From the sequence record NC_052658.1: 64,000 nucleotides of DNA; one strand, 5' to 3'. Position 1 is the stretch's first letter, and the number at the start of each line of letters is the position of its first letter. Under the pieces are notes generated by a model, which was not told where the DNA came from, did no database searches, and saw nothing but the letters and a program-made list of their open reading frames with translations. The position numbers and the translations under genes are program-made. Source of the stretch: Escherichia phage nepoznato. Below are positions 4,870 to 62,805 of the stretch, in pieces.

Positions 4870-5072
4870 TGGCTTACAATTATTACTGCATTTATGCACA
4901 TGAAAAGAAAAAAGGTGACACTGGGACTAACGTTTATGCGGAGTCTGAATCTCATGCAAAAGAGATTGGTGCTATCCTTCTATCACGCTGGACTGGAAAT
5001 AATTACAGTGCAGAAGATATGTTTGCAGAAGTAGATTCTGGTATCCAAGAAGACAACATAACAACTACGTGA
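4869..5072 (+). CDS. hypothetical protein
   Basis: 67-aa ORF, ATGA-type overlap with upstream gene. Confidence 0.4.
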   Translation: MAYNYYCIYAHEKKKGDTGTNVYAESESHAKEIGAILLSRWTGNNYSAEDMFAEVDSGIQEDNITTT

Positions 5073-5117
5073 TATACTTATACTCCCTTCTCGGAGGGAG
5101 TATTTTAAGGAGGGATT

Positions 5118-5312
5118 ATGCAGAGCGGAGAAGAACTTTTAGAGAAACAATTCTCAACGCGTCAACAAGCTTTAAGTTATATGGTTTTTCTAAGCAATCT
5201 TGATGTGAATGAGATACTTTTACGGCGCGAAGGTAATTTCTGGAGCGTTAAATATCATGCAACAAGGTCTGTAATCTACCTGGAAGAGGCGGAATTCTCT
5301 TTGGTAGAATGA
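5118..5312 (+). CDS. hypothetical protein
   Basis: 64-aa ORF preceded by hairpin and RBS AAGGAGGG. Confidence 0.45.
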   Translation: MQSGEELLEKQFSTRQQALSYMVFLSNLDVNEILLRREGNFWSVKYHATRSVIYLEEAEFSLVE

Positions 5313-5326
5313 TCCGAGGAGTAGTT

Positions 5327-5899
5327 ATGCGTTCAACTTTCACTGGCAAAATAAACGCTGGTTTGATTTTTACCGCAGTAAGCATTCTTAGCAAAAAGTT
5401 TAAAGTTGTTAACTTACCTGTGTGTGTCGATTTCGATCATGTTTTTGATCCTTCGAACCCCACTCGTTGCATAGTAAGGAGTAATGTTGAAAACCCAACA
5501 GAAAATCTTTTTTATGTAACAAAACCATCTCAAAGCATACTTAACCAGGTTGAGGCGAAATTGATACCTAACGGTAAATATTACTCCTTTTTACCTTGTA
5601 AGTCGGTTGAAGTAGAGAATAGCAGTACTTTCGCTAACAACTTGTCTGTATTCGTTTTCTTTGTTTCGCACGAAGATGAAACAGATGAAATGGTAGCAAC
5701 AGTGAGATCACTTTATGACTCTTTAGGGGTTGTTTATAGACAACAAGTGTGCGAAAATAATAAAGCCTGTGTAGATTTCATTATCAACGGTATTTGTGTT
5801 TGTAGAGTAGAATCTTTTTGGCTGCACGATACATATGTGACTGTAGCAGAGGTTATATCTGAACCAAAATTTAGTCATGCTGTTTCGTTAATAATTTGA
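5327..5899 (+). CDS. hypothetical protein
   Basis: Track ORF 5309-5899; start moved to internal ATG preceded by GAGGAG. Confidence 0.45.
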   Translation: MRSTFTGKINAGLIFTAVSILSKKFKVVNLPVCVDFDHVFDPSNPTRCIVRSNVENPTENLFYVTKPSQSILNQVEAKLIPNGKYYSFLPCKSVEVENSSTFANNLSVFVFFVSHEDETDEMVATVRSLYDSLGVVYRQQVCENNKACVDFIINGICVCRVESFWLHDTYVTVAEVISEPKFSHAVSLII

Positions 5900-41600: not shown

Positions 41601-41699
41601 ATAATCGCTTGCTTTCCTGGCTGGATCTGTTATTCTTATTACATGGCGAGGGGACACGGGAGCGCGAGACAAACACCGCCCCTGCGCGTCATTCTCTAA

Positions 41700-41720
41700 A
41701 TGAGAATGATTATCATTTAC
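41700..41720. promoter_or_regulatory. Fur-box-like palindrome (AATGAT-T-ATCATT)
   Basis: GAGAATGATTATCATTTAC; perfect 6-1-6 inverted repeat. Confidence 0.35.
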
Positions 41721-41759
41721 TTTATTAAATAAGAATCAATCTCATTTATAAACCTAAAT

Positions 41760-41778
41760 GCGAATCATTATCATTTGC
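41760..41778. promoter_or_regulatory. Fur-box-like element
   Basis: GCGAATCATTATCATTTGC. Confidence 0.3.
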
Positions 41779-42159
41779 ATTTCCACATGAGAACTCTTCT
41801 CATTCCCATCTGCATAAATTTTTGTAAACTTTAAATTTTGCTTTTGTACTTTCATTTTTGTAAAAGCAAAAAAACTTTAAATACTGTGGGCGCGCAAAAT
41901 TTTTAAAATTTTCCTTGACTTTTGAGTTTTGTTTTGTATCTGACATTTTAAGATAATTTTCCTAAACTTTAAATTTTGGTTTTCAACTTTCACTTTTGTA
42001 AATTCTTAAAAAGTTTAAATAATTTGAGGGATTTTTGAGATAATGGATAGTGGGAATTTGATATAACCTTTAATCTTATTAGTAGACCTTCAGGAACCCA
42101 CCTAGATCGAATCCTGGTGATGCAAACTGAAAAAGACAAGGGTTTGTATAGGACAAAAT

Positions 42160-42195
42160 AATAGGCTCTCTACGGTGCTGTAGGAGCCTTATTTC
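42160..42195 (+). terminator. long hairpin with U-tract at convergent junction
   Basis: AGGCTCTCTAC...GTAGGAGCCT stem followed by TATTTCT. Confidence 0.5.
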
Positions 42196-42244: not shown

Positions 42245-42787
42245 TCACAAATATCGTCTTTGCGGTATTTTGTCTGGGAAAAGTATTTCGATCAGTTTGT
42301 TATGATATTTACCTAAAAGATTTTGCCCTTTCCAGTTGACCGGATTTAGCACCCCTGGTTCATACATCCCCATTCCAATTCCGTAAACCTTATCGTAGGG
42401 GCTTGCTTCAACAAACGTTTTGTATTGGTAAAGGTGTAAGTCTGCATACAAATCTGGATTCTGTACATATTTCAAGCATAAACCTCGCATAACAATACGC
42501 TCACGGTTCTCTTCCCATACGTTGTTATCAAAATCCGACACTGCCCTACCCATACGTTTGTAATAAGCTTGGATCTTCTCATCTTTCCGTATCAAACTAT
42601 GAGTCAGAATAGCCTGTGCAGTGTTGTGGTCATTAAAAAGCAAAGCTTTACGCCACATCATATATTGTTCGACACAATTAAATGTTTGATTGTAACCTGG
42701 TTCGGTTTCTGTAAAGGGTGCAATATACCAATTACTAAACACATCTTTATGTGAAAAGAAGAATACATAATCATCAGTTATTCGCAT
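42245..42787 (-). CDS. NADAR-domain (YbiA-like, DUF1768) protein
   Basis: FFFSHKDVFSNWY, EQYMMWRKA, YGIGMG and WKGQNLLGKYHNKL blocks matching the NADAR/YbiA family. Confidence 0.7.
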   Translation of the reverse strand: MRITDDYVFFFSHKDVFSNWYIAPFTETEPGYNQTFNCVEQYMMWRKALLFNDHNTAQAILTHSLIRKDEKIQAYYKRMGRAVSDFDNNVWEENRERIVMRGLCLKYVQNPDLYADLHLYQYKTFVEASPYDKVYGIGMGMYEPGVLNPVNWKGQNLLGKYHNKLIEILFPDKIPQRRYL

Positions 42788-42998
42788 TTTTCATACTCTC
42801 CAAAATTTCACGTTGCCCTTTCTGATAGGCTTTCATCAGGACCACTTTAAGGTTTGTCTCCAAAAGATCTTCATTGTAGTTATACCGCTCCACAACATAT
42901 GTCAATTCATCATAAAGATCAAGAACGGGGTAGAATACAGGGTTATCTGCTAAACGTGCCATAGTTTCTCCTTTGTTAGTCCATCCACCAGTAGCCAT
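42774..42998 (-). CDS. hypothetical protein
   Basis: 74-aa ORF. Confidence 0.45.
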   Translation of the reverse strand: MATGGWTNKGETMARLADNPVFYPVLDLYDELTYVVERYNYNEDLLETNLKVVLMKAYQKGQREILESMKNANN

Positions 42999-43341
42999 AA
43001 ACTGCGTCTGCGTCGATGAGTTTGTGTTTGTTGTTCCGCATGTAGTCTAAGATAAGTAGACGTTTATTGTATCTGGAGAGATTATGACCCTCTTTTCCGC
43101 CATAGTCAAAATATTTTGCAAGATCTTTACACTCAAACAAAATCAGTTCGGGAGTTTCTTCACACTGGTCTGTCTGGTACACTTGACGAATGATCATGTA
43201 TACATCATCGTCTTCCGCTAAATGCTCTACTGGTCCACATCCAGCAGGAACAAATTCATAGTCCCATCGGATCAGATGTTTCTCTACTGCTTCAAAGAAA
43301 TCCATCCTTTCGTTGCGCATAATTTGAACGTCAACTAACAT
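42976..43341 (-). CDS. hypothetical protein
   Basis: 121-aa ORF. Confidence 0.45.
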   Translation of the reverse strand: MLVDVQIMRNERMDFFEAVEKHLIRWDYEFVPAGCGPVEHLAEDDDVYMIIRQVYQTDQCEETPELILFECKDLAKYFDYGGKEGHNLSRYNKRLLILDYMRNNKHKLIDADAVYGYWWMD

Positions 43342-44519
43342 GTTTCCTCCTGTAATGTTCCACCATAAAGTTTATAAATGTTTTGTATTGATGCCATGCA
43401 AGATAACTCCGCTGTCTCTGTGTAGCCATCTGGCATAGCATATTTGCTCACTGCTTCCGTGTGAAGGACACGCTTACAACGCTTTTCTGCATCTTTGCAT
43501 TGCTTCACAGTAGGGAAGTGCCACACTTGGCCCTGTTTCATAGTAAACACATTACGACTATTTTGTTCTTTGATACGGCGATTACTATTATTAGCAATAC
43601 CAAACTTCAGTGCACAGATAATATCTTGCTCATCGTAAATATAATTAATGTAGGCTTGTTGTTGATTTTTGTTAGCACACTGCGGACAACCTTGTCCTAT
43701 GTTTAAAAGGTTGTTTGCAGTTCCTTTTTGTTCCCCATGACTCTTACATACATATTTAAACTTACCTATAGAAGATGGTTTGGTAATCCATCCTATCCAA
43801 ACATACCCTTTCTTTTCTATTTTCTTTCTTACTTTATACGTAATCTGTTCCGCTGTATACCTATAAGATGCAGAGCAACGGCAGGGTAAGTGTCCATATT
43901 TAAGATTGCTACGCGTCATATAAAACTTACCATCACATAGTCCAGCTTTAACATATTCATCATGAGAACAAACAGGACACTGAACCATCCATACCGGATC
44001 ACACCCTTTACGTTCCCCCGTGTTGGTGAAAATAGTGCCTTCCTTAAACTTCCCTGTAGAAAAGAAATCTGCAATATGTTGATCGTCGGGTATTGTTTGT
44101 GACCTCCTTGTGTTCTCATACCTACATATAAGACAACCACTGCCATGTTTAAAACTATCAAAACTACATGTATTCCATTCATGACCATACCTACAACGTA
44201 GCATCATTTTCGTACGCGCACCTTTAAACGGTTCTACGATACCTATGATGGTAATCCCCTTAGCTTCCGCTATTGGTTTACATTCAGTAAGGTATGTTTT
44301 TAAATCTTTAATTTGACCTGCACACATAGGACAACCACTACCACGTTTAAAACTGTTAATACTTGTAGTATCCCATTTATAACCACAATGACACAACAAA
44401 TCAAGTTTTGTATTAACCCCTTTCCATTCTCCCGTCCATCCTAAGATTTGGATTTGCTTACTCTCTGCTATGGGTTGACACTCTTCTTTATATTGTTCCC
44501 ATGATTTTGGTGCTGCCAT
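43335..44519 (-). CDS. Cys-rich protein with three tandem zinc-ribbon-like repeats
   Basis: Three repeats of GW.G......L.C.CG..W.T....F..GSGC..C in 394 aa; function unknown, possibly nuclease-associated. Confidence 0.5.
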   Translation of the reverse strand: MAAPKSWEQYKEECQPIAESKQIQILGWTGEWKGVNTKLDLLCHCGYKWDTTSINSFKRGSGCPMCAGQIKDLKTYLTECKPIAEAKGITIIGIVEPFKGARTKMMLRCRYGHEWNTCSFDSFKHGSGCLICRYENTRRSQTIPDDQHIADFFSTGKFKEGTIFTNTGERKGCDPVWMVQCPVCSHDEYVKAGLCDGKFYMTRSNLKYGHLPCRCSASYRYTAEQITYKVRKKIEKKGYVWIGWITKPSSIGKFKYVCKSHGEQKGTANNLLNIGQGCPQCANKNQQQAYINYIYDEQDIICALKFGIANNSNRRIKEQNSRNVFTMKQGQVWHFPTVKQCKDAEKRCKRVLHTEAVSKYAMPDGYTETAELSCMASIQNIYKLYGGTLQEETC

Positions 44520-56961: not shown

Positions 56962-57834
56962 ATGAAAGATTTGTACCAAGATGTTTTTTCTTTTTTAGAT
57001 CGCACTTCAGAAACATACACTAGAGAGAATGCAAACAAACCTTCCCACCTTGTTAACACGCACAGGGATCTCTTGGCGGGGATTTTAAGCAAACATATGG
57101 CAATGACACAGATACTGCCAAAAAACTTGTCAGAATGGCATACAGAAGGTTTTGGACATATTCACGACTTGGATTATCTGCTCTCTCCTCTTACAAACTG
57201 TTGTCTTGTTAATTATCAAGATATGTTAGAGAATGGTTTTAAGATCGGTGCTGCACAGATAGAAAAACCAAAATCTATTGGAGTAGCTACTACAGTGCTA
57301 ACTCAAATCATCCAAGCTGTTGCCTCCAGTCAGTATGGAGGTCAGACGTGTGCGCACATTGATAAAGGTCTTAGTCCTTATGTTGAAGCCAGTTTCCTTA
57401 AAAACATGGAGATAACCAAACGTCGCTACGGTTGTTATGCAAGGAAAGAAGCCCTAGAAATGACCGAACAAGATGTATATGACGCTATGCAAACTCTTTT
57501 GTATCAGGTTAACACTTTAATGAGTGTTAATGGACAATCTCCTTTTATTACAATCAGTATGGGTCTGGATACCTCTGTTTTTGGCAGAATGATCACAGCT
57601 AACTATCTTAAAGTGCATAGTAACGGTCTAGGTAAAGATCATGTAACGCCTGTATTCCCTAAAGTTATTTTCTTTTTACAAGAAGGTGTTAACATGAAAC
57701 CTAGTGATCCTAACTACGACCTTAAGCAACAAGCTTTGGCATGTTGTGCTGATCGTATTTATCCAGATTTTATTTCTGTTCCTTTGAACAAAGAAGTTAC
57801 GGGATCAGCAGATGGTACCGTTACGAGTATGGGT
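56962..57834 (+). CDS. nrdD: anaerobic ribonucleoside-triphosphate reductase NrdD, exon 1
   Basis: Colinear with T4 NrdD N-terminal half (NANK, RDL.AGI.SKH, NCCLV, ENGFK.G.AQIE.PKSIGVAT, SPMG); track ORF stop lies inside the intron. Confidence 0.85.
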
Positions 57835-58604
57835 AAACTATAACTGCTCATGTAAAATCTGCCTAAACGGGGGAACTCTCAACAGAGACAATCCCGTGCT
57901 AAACGTAACAGAACTCCCAACACAGAAGAAGGGGGTACTGATATGAGAAAACAAATTCGTGATTTTGAAGGGTATGAAATTGACGAGCTTGGAAATGTTT
58001 ATTGTACCAGGTATAAGGATGAAAGAATCCTTCGCTCGTGGGAAGAAATAAACACAGGATACCAACTTGTCAGAATACGTAAAAACAAGAAAACTGTTTG
58101 CTTTCGGGTGCACAGACTTGTAGCTGAAGCGTTTTTACCCAATCCAGACAATTTACCTTATGTGAAGCATAAAGGTGACAATAGGAAAGACAACAGTGTA
58201 TACAATCTTGAGTGGGGATCTTGTCCAGACAACACGCAAGAGGGTTACGATAATAACTGTTATGCTTTCTACACAAGGTGTCACAGTGTAAAAGCTACTC
58301 ATAAGGCTACTGGTGAAGTTTTTTACTTTAAAAGTCTGAGATGTTGTGCTGACGCTTTAGGGTTGGACAGAAAAAGAATATCTGCAATCTTAAAACAAGG
58401 AGCACCAAATAATTATGATTATGAGTTCTGTTACGAAATGCCTAACGACTAGCTGTGATGAATGTAGCAGCGTAGGGTGTAAGCCTATGACACCCCAAAT
58501 GGTAGACATGCTTTAAGCATGAAGATATAGTCTGATCTGCATGGTGACATGCAGCAGCACGTAATGGTGCGGGAGTGGCCTTGCGAGCCACTTTGAACAT
58601 AATG
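57835..58604 (+). mobile_element. group I intron in nrdD carrying an HNH homing endonuclease ORF
   Basis: 770-bp insertion between SMG and CRSFLS codons; exon 1 ends in T and the insertion ends in G; boundaries inferred from T4 NrdD alignment. Confidence 0.6.
57943..58452 (+). CDS. intron-encoded HNH homing endonuclease
   Basis: GYEIDELGNVY...VHRLVAEAFLPNP...KHKGDNRKDNSVYNLEWG motifs typical of phage HNH endonucleases. Confidence 0.75.
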   Translation: MRKQIRDFEGYEIDELGNVYCTRYKDERILRSWEEINTGYQLVRIRKNKKTVCFRVHRLVAEAFLPNPDNLPYVKHKGDNRKDNSVYNLEWGSCPDNTQEGYDNNCYAFYTRCHSVKATHKATGEVFYFKSLRCCADALGLDRKRISAILKQGAPNNYDYEFCYEMPND

Positions 58605-59546
58605 TGTAGAAGTTTCTTGTCATACTATGCAACAGAGCAAGGAGAAAAATATGATGGACGATTCAACCTTGGAGTAGTTTCTATCAACTTGCCTCTGATT
58701 GCTGCGGAAGCGAGAAGTAAAGGAGAATCTTTCACCGATCTTCTTAATAAACATATGGAGATAGCCTACGATGCTCACATGCTACGTGTAAACCGTATCA
58801 GACATACCAAAGCATCTGAAAACCCTATTCTTTTCATGGAAGGGGCTTTAGCGCGTTTAAATGCCAATGATGAAATTGGTGTTTTGTTTGAAGGTGGTTA
58901 TGCTTCTATTAGTATTGGTTATGTAGGTCTTGCCGAAGCTTTGGAAATCCTTTATCCAGAAGAAAAAGATAAAAAGGAACTTGGTAAAAACATTCTGCAA
59001 CATATGAAAGATGTGTGTGCTGTGTTTAAAGAGCGATCTAAGCTGGCATTTAGTCTCTATGGAACTCCAGCAGAATCTTTGTGCTATAAGTTTGCAACAG
59101 CTTTAAATGAAAAATACCCAGGTTTGGTAGAAAGAGACTATCTTACTAACTCTTTTCATCAACCTGTATGGTTGGTAACAAATCCTTTTGAAAAATGGGA
59201 TTATGAAGCAGGTTTTGCACAGATTAGTAATGGTGGTAACATAAGTTATGTCGAAACACCAAACTTAAAGAATAACTTAGAAGCTTTGGAGACTTTAGTA
59301 GACTACGCTTATGAACATATTCACTATTTTGGTATTAATCAGCCCGTGGATCAATGCTTTAAGTGTGGTTTTCATGGAGAATTTAAGGCAACGGCTAAAG
59401 GGTTTGAGTGTCCTGATTGTGGCAACCATGAAGAAGAAACTATTTCTGTAGTTAGACGTGTATCAGGGTATCTTTCTGCTCCTAATTCACGGCCTTATAA
59501 CAAAGGTAAAATGCAGGAAGTTTTGCAAAGGGAGAAACATCTTTGA
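58605..59546 (+). CDS. nrdD: anaerobic ribonucleoside-triphosphate reductase NrdD, exon 2
   Basis: CRSFLS...NLGVV.INLP, TPAE.LCY.F, Zn-site CFKCG...CPDCG and glycyl-radical motif RVSGYL; joined product about 604 aa. Confidence 0.85.
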   Translation, partial: CRSFLSYYATEQGEKYDGRFNLGVVSINLPLIAAEARSKGESFTDLLNKHMEIAYDAHMLRVNRIRHTKASENPILFMEGALARLNANDEIGVLFEGGYASISIGYVGLAEALEILYPEEKDKKELGKNILQHMKDVCAVFKERSKLAFSLYGTPAESLCYKFATALNEKYPGLVERDYLTNSFHQPVWLVTNPFEKWDYEAGFAQISNGGNISYVETPNLKNNLEALETLVDYAYEHIHYFGINQPVDQCFKCGFHGEFKATAKGFECPDCGNHEEETISVVRRVSGYLSAPNSRPYNKGKMQEVLQREKHL

Positions 59547-60840: not shown

Positions 60841-61497
60841 ATGACTATTAAACATATCTCTTTTGATGTATGGAACACACTGATCACAGCAAACTCCAAT
60901 TACGCAGACATGCGAGCCTGGACTATCGCAAAATATGGAGATATTACGGAAGTGGAAGCAAGAGCAGCTTATAAGAAGATCAAAAAGGAACTGGATAATG
61001 CAGCACTTCAAGGCAAAGCCGAGTGTGCAGCATACGCCTGGGAAAGACTTGGTTCTGAACTTGGGATAACACCTTGGAAGTCTGCAAAGCTTCGTTTCGA
61101 GTGTGAACAGTGGTTCCTTAAGTTTCCACCACACGTAGCCGTGGATCTGCCGATGTACTTGCTGTATCTTTCGGGACGTTATGATTTGAGTATTAAGAGC
61201 AATACCAACTTTATATCAGGGGATATCCTGCGTCGTGCTTGTAAGTTTGATAGTTGGAATTGTTTTGAGTTCACCCATTTCTCGGATGAAGCTTTACTTT
61301 GTAAACCAGATCCGCGATTCTTTGCTCGCACGCTCACATATTCTCCGATCCCTCTGTTAGGGCACGAAGTATTGCACGTAGGCGATAGTGAAGAATATGA
61401 TGGAAAATGTGTTGACTTAGGATTTAACTTCTGTCATATTAAGAACCCTAACGACTTACTAGAGAAACTTAAAAGAGGAGAAATTGTAAATGCGTAA
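60841..61497 (+). CDS. HAD-superfamily hydrolase-like protein
   Basis: Motif I-like FDVWNTL near N-terminus and motif IV-like HVGDSEEYD. Confidence 0.5.
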   Translation: MTIKHISFDVWNTLITANSNYADMRAWTIAKYGDITEVEARAAYKKIKKELDNAALQGKAECAAYAWERLGSELGITPWKSAKLRFECEQWFLKFPPHVAVDLPMYLLYLSGRYDLSIKSNTNFISGDILRRACKFDSWNCFEFTHFSDEALLCKPDPRFFARTLTYSPIPLLGHEVLHVGDSEEYDGKCVDLGFNFCHIKNPNDLLEKLKRGEIVNA

Positions 61498-62317
61498 TCA
61501 AACTCAAATTTTTGCAAATAAATTTGATGACCTGGAAACTGCTACTTTTGATATCCAAGATTATTCAAAATTGAAATTTGGTAGTAACCAAGCCGCGCGT
61601 CGTATGGGTAAAGAATTGGCACTTCAGTTTTTTGCTCAAGTGGCAATGAAACATATTGGGGAACAATTTGTTATCATTCCTTCTCCTTACAACCATGTGC
61701 ATAATGCTGCAACAATGATGACAGATCATTTTATTAATTACTTTAACATGTTGCAATCACAATATAATCAAGGTCGTTCAGCAGAACTGGACATTATTCA
61801 TCGTAAAGTTAGCTATATCAACGATTATGGTTTCTTGGATAAAGCTAGTCGTAAGAAACTTATTGATGGGGATACATTCTACTGCAACAAAGAATTCTGG
61901 GGTGATAAGAAGCTTGTATTCATTGATGATGTAAATATCACTGGAACGCATGAAGACAAACTGATTGAGATTCTTGATGAAAATCAAGTTAAAAATGATG
62001 TTTACTTCCTGTATTTTGCAAAATATGAAGGTAATCAAGCAGATACCGAAGCTAAACTGAATTTTAACTACATTAATACACCAGAAGCGTTTGTTAAAAT
62101 GATTAATGAAGAACGTGATGCACAGTGTCTTGTTCGTCCTATTAAATATCTTATGGGCCAAAATCATGAAGACTTCAAAATCATTCTTAGCCAATTGCCA
62201 CACTACTATGTAGAGCAACTTTTCTTCGGCTGTTTAGCTGAAGGCTACAATCGAATTGCAAAGTATACTGAAAACTTTGAATTCTTGGATCGTTACACAA
62301 AACAACACATTCTGTAA
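61490..62317 (+). CDS. phosphoribosyltransferase-fold protein
   Basis: PRPP-binding-loop-like KKLVFIDDVNITGTHEDK. Confidence 0.5.
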   Translation: MRNQTQIFANKFDDLETATFDIQDYSKLKFGSNQAARRMGKELALQFFAQVAMKHIGEQFVIIPSPYNHVHNAATMMTDHFINYFNMLQSQYNQGRSAELDIIHRKVSYINDYGFLDKASRKKLIDGDTFYCNKEFWGDKKLVFIDDVNITGTHEDKLIEILDENQVKNDVYFLYFAKYEGNQADTEAKLNFNYINTPEAFVKMINEERDAQCLVRPIKYLMGQNHEDFKIILSQLPHYYVEQLFFGCLAEGYNRIAKYTENFEFLDRYTKQHIL

Positions 62318-62331
62318 TAAGGAGCTAAAAA

Positions 62332-62805
62332 ATGCTTAAAATGAAAACAGGTAATCTTATTGATGCCGCTAAAGCAGGTGAAGTAACTGTTATTGCTCAT
62401 TGTTGCAATTGTATGTGTAATATGGGGGCAGGAATTGCTCCGCAAATTAAACGAGCATTCCCTTATGCATATGCGGCGGATTTAGACACAATGGCTGGTG
62501 ATCAGAGTAAGTTAGGTTCTTTTAGTTTAGGGGTGCCAGACGAACAATCAGACCCTTTGGTATATAATCTATACGGGCAATACCGTTACGGATATAATGC
62601 TAAAGGTCGTCAGTTGGACTATGATGCCCTATACGATGCACTAATAGCTATGGCTAATGATTTGCTTCTCCGTGACCAAAAATGTAAGATCGGTTTACCT
62701 ATGATTGGAGCGGGACATGCCGGAGGTAATTGGGCTATCATCCAAGTGATGATTGAAGAAACTTTAGTAAAAACAGGTCACGATGTGACTATTTATAAAC
62801 TTTAA
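62332..62805 (+). CDS. macro-domain protein (ADP-ribose binding/processing)
   Basis: VIAHCCNCMCNMGAGIA and IGLPMIGAGHAGG glycine-rich loops typical of macro domains; 157 aa. Confidence 0.55.
   Translation: MLKMKTGNLIDAAKAGEVTVIAHCCNCMCNMGAGIAPQIKRAFPYAYAADLDTMAGDQSKLGSFSLGVPDEQSDPLVYNLYGQYRYGYNAKGRQLDYDALYDALIAMANDLLLRDQKCKIGLPMIGAGHAGGNWAIIQVMIEETLVKTGHDVTIYKL

Follow-up and report, generated by a model that had tools for sequence, protein, structure and literature searches.

The 64-kb window that we analyzed (the whole stretch of DNA, 64,000 nucleotides) encodes on its minus strand a 180-amino-acid protein whose profile match, fold, and catalytic residues all place it in the NADAR superfamily. 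From its sequence and its relatives, this protein is likely to be a stand-alone guanine-ADP-ribose glycohydrolase of the AdfN type, an orphan that would act like an antitoxin in counter-defense against DarTG1. Its closest counterpart with a published activity is AdfN^Bas60, the NADAR of a phage in the sister genus, and orthology to that protein, taken with the literature on it, is the decisive evidence for this reading.

The NADAR gene and its surroundings

The preliminary description of this DNA had placed a 180-amino-acid ORF at 42245–42787. These coordinates proved exact, and the gene runs on the minus strand, which that description had left out. The gene, its expression signals, and the co-oriented genes upstream of it are as follows.

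42245..42787, minus strand: gene for the NADAR-domain protein (180-amino-acid ORF with an ATG start, stop codon included; orthologue of phAPEC8 gp010)
42796..42801, minus strand: Shine-Dalgarno sequence GGAGAG, read from the sequence, 8 nucleotides 5′ of the NADAR ATG
42155..42189, minus strand: intrinsic-terminator-like hairpin and U-run, ~55 nucleotides past the NADAR stop codon
42774..45734, minus strand: co-oriented upstream block comprising a 74-amino-acid ORF, a 121-amino-acid ORF, a CapR-domain/zinc-finger 'endonuclease', and an AAA ATPase (Pfam and PHROG matches)
43335..44519, minus strand: the 394-amino-acid 'endonuclease' of that block, two genes upstream of the NADAR gene, in which Pfam (PF21817, PF14311) finds four CapR-homology domains as well as a treble-clef zinc finger

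The 30 nucleotides upstream of the NADAR gene read ...TTTTGGAGAGTATGAAAA-ATG, and the start of the gene shares 14 nucleotides with the 3′ end of the upstream 74-amino-acid gene. At the other end, RNA folding gave the hairpin at 42155..42189 an energy of –17.6 kcal/mol (z = –4.6 relative to shuffled sequences), and the hairpin is followed by AUUAUUUUG. An ARNold terminator is annotated at the equivalent position in the phAPEC8 record; the hairpin was absent from the list returned by a simple terminator scan. It is probably the end of the NADAR transcription unit.

We treated the upstream block only as context for the NADAR gene, and its 74- and 121-amino-acid ORFs carry no functional assignment. 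Searches of the neighboring ORFs with Pfam and PHROG turned up no ADP-ribosyltransferase or DarT gene adjoining the NADAR gene, and when all six reading frames of the 64-kb window were scanned by HMM, no other NADAR appeared. The gene is stand-alone, with no adjacent toxin, and lies inside a block of small early-type genes.

Two other features of this region are recorded here in their own right. The 'endonuclease' varies in length from ~330 to 467 amino acids among relatives, which suggests that it is a mobile or rapidly changing gene resembling those for homing endonucleases. Downstream of the NADAR gene, the stretch at 41690..42030 is AT-rich, non-coding, and rich in repeats, with three copies of a unit at 29-nucleotide spacing, each containing an inverted repeat (TAAATGAGAAT..ATCATTTA), and a 72-nucleotide direct repeat, 138 nucleotides apart. 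Repeat regions are annotated at the matching stretch of the relative 'tuntematon', and no tRNA gene or Rfam family reached threshold within 41690..42030. These repeats could be a regulatory or promoter array of the small-gene block.

Profile, fold, and active site of the protein

The preliminary description had assigned the protein to the NADAR/YbiA-like family and had proposed that this be checked by a profile search, structure prediction, and active-site comparison, all of which bore the assignment out. The Pfam profile PF08719 (NADAR/DUF1768) matched the 180-amino-acid protein with 123 bits (cutoff 35.1; E = 1.8e-35), beginning at residue 11 and spanning profile positions 3–154 of 163, and PHROG 1017 matched it with E = 7e-52. 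The TIGR02464 model ('riboflavin biosynthesis intermediates N-glycosidase', cutoff 73.7) gave 112 bits for the window protein, 109 for AdfN^Bas60, and 169.5 for YbiA, and because AdfN^Bas60 scores like the window protein and true YbiA scores 169.5, a match to this model does not discriminate between clades. The PADLOC model PDC-M42C likewise gave 120 bits for the window protein and 117 for AdfN^Bas60. Membership in NCBIfam DS32_2 ('NADAR family anti-phage protein') was rejected at 16.5 bits against a cutoff of 240.

Searching the PDB by phmmer with the window protein retrieved 8BAU, the complex of the Phytophthora nicotianae NADAR with ADP-ribose (E = 4e-15), and did not recover YbiA. An AlphaFold2 model built on a 69-homologue alignment had a mean pLDDT of 95.6 and showed the core fold of the NADAR superfamily, a YbiA-like alpha-helical core with flanking small beta sheets. 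When this model was compared with the PDB using Foldseek, the sole significant matches were 8BAU (TM 0.79, E = 2.7e-10) and E. coli YbiA (2B3W, E = 3.4e-07).

To relate residues of the window protein to known functions, we projected the 8BAU alignment on the published active site of the P. nicotianae enzyme, PnNADAR (PMC11543638). Counterparts of all eight active-site residues were present in the window protein (window = PnNADAR: E40 = E43, K47 = K50, K77 = K75, R81 = R79, W91 = W89, R95 = R93, E127 = E125, and D132 = D130), with E40, K47, W91, E127, and D132 invariant across the 69-homologue alignment and K77 and R81 nearly so. The catalytic Glu/Lys pair is E43/K50 in PnNADAR and E88/K95 in C7 NADAR (PMC11543638), and mutation of the counterparts of E40 and K47, which are E43 and K50 in PnNADAR and E36 and K43 in T4 AdfN, impairs activity. 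The lysine corresponding to K77 (K75 in PnNADAR, K115 in E. coli C7) is required to counteract DarT1 in vivo (PMC11543638). The second acidic residue of the window protein is a Glu (E127), as in the stand-alone NADAR and YbiA groups; this position is occupied by His in T4-type phage NADARs and by Asp (C7 D171) in the DarT1-associated DarG1.

In several GenBank phage records (e.g., MW175890.1, PQ571307.1, and OR352953.1) the orthologue is labeled 'GTP cyclohydrolase II', and in PQ529420.1 it is labeled 'DNA methyltransferase'. We rejected the former identity because NADAR is the one domain that Pfam recognizes across the 180 amino acids, a RibA/GTP cyclohydrolase II domain being absent; the label is an annotation error inherited from RibA-fused NADAR/COG3236 entries.

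Relationship to AdfN^Bas60

Over 172 amino acids the window protein is 59% identical (E = 7e-69) to bas60_0111 (QXV83846.1), which is annotated as a 'putative YbiA-like N-glycosidase' in Escherichia phage PaulScherrer (Bas60; MZ501100.1). Bas60 belongs to the genus Justusliebigvirus, sister to Phapecoctavirus within the subfamily Stephanstirmvirinae, and Bas60–62 are phi92-like phages, the sister group of the phAPEC8-like phages. When six-frame translations covering 99% of the Bas60 genome (all but ~1.4 kb at 99001–100425) were scanned by HMM, bas60_0111 was the sole NADAR match, and from this single NADAR gene in the scanned genome we infer that bas60_0111 is the published AdfN^Bas60. The two proteins have similar lengths (180 amino acids in the window, 183 in Bas60), the same catalytic and ADP-ribose-binding residues, and the similar TIGR02464 and PDC-M42C scores given above; they come from the same subfamily, and the gene order AAA ATPase–CapR-type endonuclease–NADAR is common to the window and Justusliebigvirus. 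They differ at 41% of residues and by an indel of 6 residues in the loop that follows residue 27, and in the window two extra ORFs (74 and 121 amino acids) lie between the endonuclease and NADAR genes.

The activity of AdfN^Bas60 is described by Johannesman et al. (Nat Commun 2025; PMC11825919). AdfN stands for 'anti-DarT factor NADAR', a name also given to T4 gp30.3, which removes DarT1-made ADP-ribose from phage DNA. AdfN^Bas32 and AdfN^Bas60, two unrelated phage NADARs, neutralized DarT1 in E. coli, and with either of them RB69, T5, and Bas25 again formed plaques on DarTG1 hosts; neither rescued T5 from the thymidine-specific DarTG2, and every phage NADAR tested was ineffective against thymidine-specific DarT2. 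In the sections consulted, the evidence for Bas60 comes from ectopic expression, and a deletion in the native phage is not described. Johannesman et al. place AdfN^Bas60 among the bacterial NADARs that are not associated with DarT, outside the YbiA-like housekeeping clade, a placement that agrees with the cellular relatives of the window protein, of which the nearest (40–46% identity) stand alone and are annotated simply as 'NADAR family protein', with examples on plasmids of Pseudomonas syringae and Burkholderia.

These results bear on the proposal in the preliminary description that the gene counters toxins of the DarT type. For the guanine-specific DarT1 the proposal holds up, given the 59%-identical, syntenic AdfN^Bas60, whereas for DarT in general it does not, because all phage NADARs tested failed against DarT2 (PMC11825919). 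Narrowed to DarT1 and guanine, a putative anti-DarT role for the window gene is thus supported by orthology. The window protein would have the same activity and in vivo role as AdfN^Bas60, and at 59% identity its substrate or context specificity could diverge. [quoted passage not shown] A search of the available literature library found no paper joining Phapecoctavirus with NADAR, DarTG, or AdfN.

Comparison with other NADAR systems

Like AdfN^T4 (gp30.3), the prototype of phage NADAR counter-defense that reverses guanine ADP-ribosylation by DarT1, the window protein is an orphan NADAR encoded by a phage and has the E/K pair (E36/K43 in T4, E40/K47 in the window). The similarity is otherwise limited: identity is ~15% in the alignment, T4 has His where the window protein has E127, and the T4 type, which is limited to the core domain, reaches full activity only in the context of T-even infection. 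In addition, gp30.3 matches none of the NCBIfam and PADLOC models matched by the window protein. Membership in the T4-type 'phage NADAR' clade was rejected on the retained E127 and the low identity to gp30.3, and the window type appears to be an acquisition separate from that of the T4 type.

With DarG1 (E. coli C7, Geobacter/Trichlorobacter lovleyi) the window protein shares its fold, a predicted ability to hydrolyze guanine-N2-ADP-ribose, and the logic of a type IV antitoxin, in which the product of the toxin is undone and the toxin itself is not bound. Judged against the described features of DarG1, it differs: it has no adjacent DarT1, it has Glu (E127) in place of Asp, and it does not have the N-terminal beta1-beta2-alpha1 extension, its model showing a single short strand ahead of the conserved core. 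PADLOC gave no DarG match for the NADAR protein. With no neighboring toxin and no such match, we set aside the idea that the protein is a DarG1-type antitoxin of a phage-borne TA system.

The stand-alone NADARs, represented by the P. nicotianae enzyme of 8BAU, are the closest group with a solved structure, both by sequence and by fold. The ADP-ribose-contacting residues are conserved between that enzyme and the window protein, the bacterial relatives named above are also stand-alone, and the difference is that the window protein is encoded by a phage. Taken together, the features of the AdfN class found in the window protein are that it is phage-encoded, stands alone without a cognate DarT, and is orthologous to a validated AdfN; in every respect open to computational test, this putative AdfN fits the class.

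Proposed mechanism and alternative substrates

In a DarTG1 host, DarT1 would ADP-ribosylate the N2 of guanine in the DNA of the infecting phage and thereby block its replication. The phage NADAR would bind the ADP-ribose, contacting its pyrophosphate through K47, R81, W91, and R95 and its distal ribose through E40 and E127, and would then hydrolyze the N-glycosidic bond to guanine to yield replicable DNA. The enzyme would thus target the modification itself without binding the toxin, in the manner of a type IV antitoxin.

A related possibility, which we consider unlikely, is that the protein is a broader or different de-ADP-ribosylase of nucleic-acid bases, with G- or C-ADPr RNA or DNA made by ADP-ribosyltransferases of other defense systems or competitors as its main target and reversal of DarT1 as a side activity. 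All NADAR families tested strip G-ADPr from RNA as well as from DNA, and cytidine-ADPr is also removed by the stand-alone and YbiA-type enzymes, but not by the DarG1 or T4 types; the window protein, in keeping E127, has the Glu of the cytidine-ADPr-active groups rather than the His of T4 or the Asp of DarG1. Moreover, homologues at 36–41% identity are carried by hundreds of myoviruses of Gram-positive hosts (Staphylococcus, Listeria, Enterococcus, and Bacillus), and their abundance hints that the selective pressure on the family may extend beyond E. coli DarTG1. Against this, in vivo the AdfN^Bas60 lineage has no known phenotype other than the one against DarTG1 (PMC11825919), and the cited NADAR literature names no E. 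coli defense system whose ADP-ribosylation target is cytosine, or guanine in RNA.

Another proposal is that of Iyer et al. (2022), who argued from contextual analysis that the Macro, NADAR, SLOG, and Nudix proteins of phages act for the most part on soluble molecules. Under that proposal the window enzyme would degrade soluble ADP-ribose derivatives (either cADPR-type immune signals or toxic ADPr derivatives) and so blunt NAD-based signaling defenses, and the annotation of Bas60 does contain other NAD/ADPr genes, namely those for a macrodomain protein, a sirtuin family protein, NAMPT, and PRPP synthetase. The proposal was, however, purely contextual and older than the biochemical work: every NADAR assayed since then has had base-linked ADPr as its substrate, and the orthologue AdfN^Bas60 counters DarT1. 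In the window neighborhood, moreover, Pfam and PHROG searches found the NADAR gene neither fused nor adjacent to a SLOG, Nudix, or Macro gene. We regard a soluble substrate as very improbable.

We give least credence of all to a YbiA-like housekeeping N-glycosidase acting on reactive intermediates of the riboflavin pathway, which would cover both the 'NAD housekeeping' entertained in the preliminary description and the 'GTP cyclohydrolase II' label: the TIGR02464 score is above the cutoff and the orthologue goes by the name of GTP cyclohydrolase II or YbiA-like N-glycosidase in several records, but the validated AdfN^Bas60 scores close to the window protein and far from YbiA on that model, only 29% of residues are identical to those of E. 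coli YbiA, the phmmer search recovered 8BAU rather than YbiA, the only domain found by Pfam is NADAR, and Johannesman et al. place the Bas60-type protein outside the YbiA-like housekeeping clade (PMC11825919). The window protein and E. coli YbiA do share a superfamily and a core fold; YbiA differs also in having given no in vivo protection from DarT1. The housekeeping suggestion of the preliminary description fared poorly, and an AdfN-type role against DarTG1 is the reading that we carry forward.

Conservation and distribution

The window is part of a Phapecoctavirus genome; these phAPEC8-like myoviruses of E. coli fall within the subfamily Stephanstirmvirinae. The 5 kb around the NADAR gene are 96–98% identical to ECML-183-2, TSP7_1, and phAPEC8, and the virulent-phage setting assumed in the preliminary description is borne out by this similarity to phAPEC8-like Phapecoctavirus genomes. 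In phAPEC8 the orthologue, gp010, is annotated as a 'hypothetical protein'. Among five Phapecoctavirus genomes (among them phAPEC8, Schickermooser, dw-ec, and vB_Ec-G1), the dN/dS of the NADAR gene ranged from 0.02 to 0.15 at dS values of up to about 1.1, indicating that the gene is real, constrained, and under purifying selection.

A NADAR with at least 80% identity to that of the window was found in 69 phage records, and the neighboring ATPase, counted separately at the same threshold, was also found in 69; the Justusliebigvirus version of the NADAR was present in 56 records. These counts place the gene close to the core in both genera, and in Phapecoctavirus it appears to be near-core. In all, 717 phage records matched the window NADAR.

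Some of the records concerned are described as 'Campylobacter phage' with C. jejuni as the host (MG065650.1, MG065639.1, and others), and across this region these are 94–99% identical to E. coli Phapecoctavirus or Justusliebigvirus genomes, which suggests that their hosts were mislabeled or that coliphages contaminated that data set. As for the plasmid relatives, the closest bacterial ones (43–46% identity), a P. syringae plasmid (NZ_MK621013.1; 4980..5933 of the stretch compared) encodes a longer NADAR protein of 317 amino acids directly after the gene for a 1052-amino-acid LPD1 'polyvalent protein', and on B. ambifaria pBMC401 (5001..5486 of the stretch compared) the NADAR gene adjoins genes for SbcCD-like nucleases. 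Plasmids may also employ this NADAR clade in anti-defense or DNA-repair roles.

A macrodomain gene and an interrupted nrdD in the same window

Elsewhere in the window, on the opposite strand, lie a second gene related to ADP-ribose and an interrupted gene for anaerobic ribonucleotide reductase.

62332..62805, plus strand: gene for a 157-amino-acid macrodomain protein (Pfam Macro, 23 bits; cutoff 22)
61490..62317 and 60841..61497, plus strand: ComF-like PRTase and HAD-like hydrolase genes, ahead of the macrodomain gene
56962..59546, plus strand: split nrdD (anaerobic ribonucleotide reductase), with 56962..57843 matching profile positions 1–263 and 58575..59546 matching positions 263–562
57943..58452, plus strand: 169-amino-acid HNH/I-HmuI-like endonuclease ORF between the nrdD halves

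The PADLOC DarG model matched the protein encoded at 62332..62805 over its macrodomain part (E = 1.6e-10), and the best PDB relatives of that protein were SCO6735 (5E3B), DarG from T. aquaticus (5M31), and human TARG1, which are of the type that reverses thymidine-ADPr. Bas60 has the same trio of PRTase, hydrolase, and macrodomain genes (bas60_0070–0072). On these similarities the macrodomain protein is a candidate AdfM-like factor against DarTG2, which would complement the NADAR. It is conceivable, although we hold the idea only tentatively, that the NADAR and this DarG/TARG1-like macrodomain together form a two-enzyme kit, the one acting on guanine adducts (and possibly on cytosine adducts and RNA) and the other on thymine adducts, with immunity reaching beyond DarTG1.

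The nrdD gene is uninterrupted (1815 nucleotides) in the close relative SF1-1. Between the two halves in the window, the group I intron family RF00028 of Rfam matched at 58315..58554 with 39.3 bits (E = 2.5e-08), which is below the gathering score of 50. A mobile group I intron that encodes a homing endonuclease is the probable cause of the interruption.

Discussion

That a NADAR of this kind counters DarT1 is an idea already published, in 2024–25, for the AdfN^Bas60 lineage, and because the underlying biology was published between 2023 and 2025, the window protein opens no new mechanism. What it would add is an extension of the AdfN class of counter-defense to another genus, along with a likely function for a gene that is called a 'hypothetical protein' in phAPEC8 and that wrongly bears the name 'GTP cyclohydrolase II' in the records of several relatives.

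Nearly all Phapecoctavirus phages appear to carry the gene, and the genus is under consideration for phage therapy of E. coli. We would predict that Phapecoctavirus phages resist DarTG1 hosts, which would be useful both for choosing therapeutic phages and for interpreting host range. If the NADAR clade with Glu at the second acidic position, which is shared with hundreds of myoviruses of Gram-positive hosts, does act on more substrates than the T4 type, this would point to ADP-ribosylating defenses that are still to be discovered.
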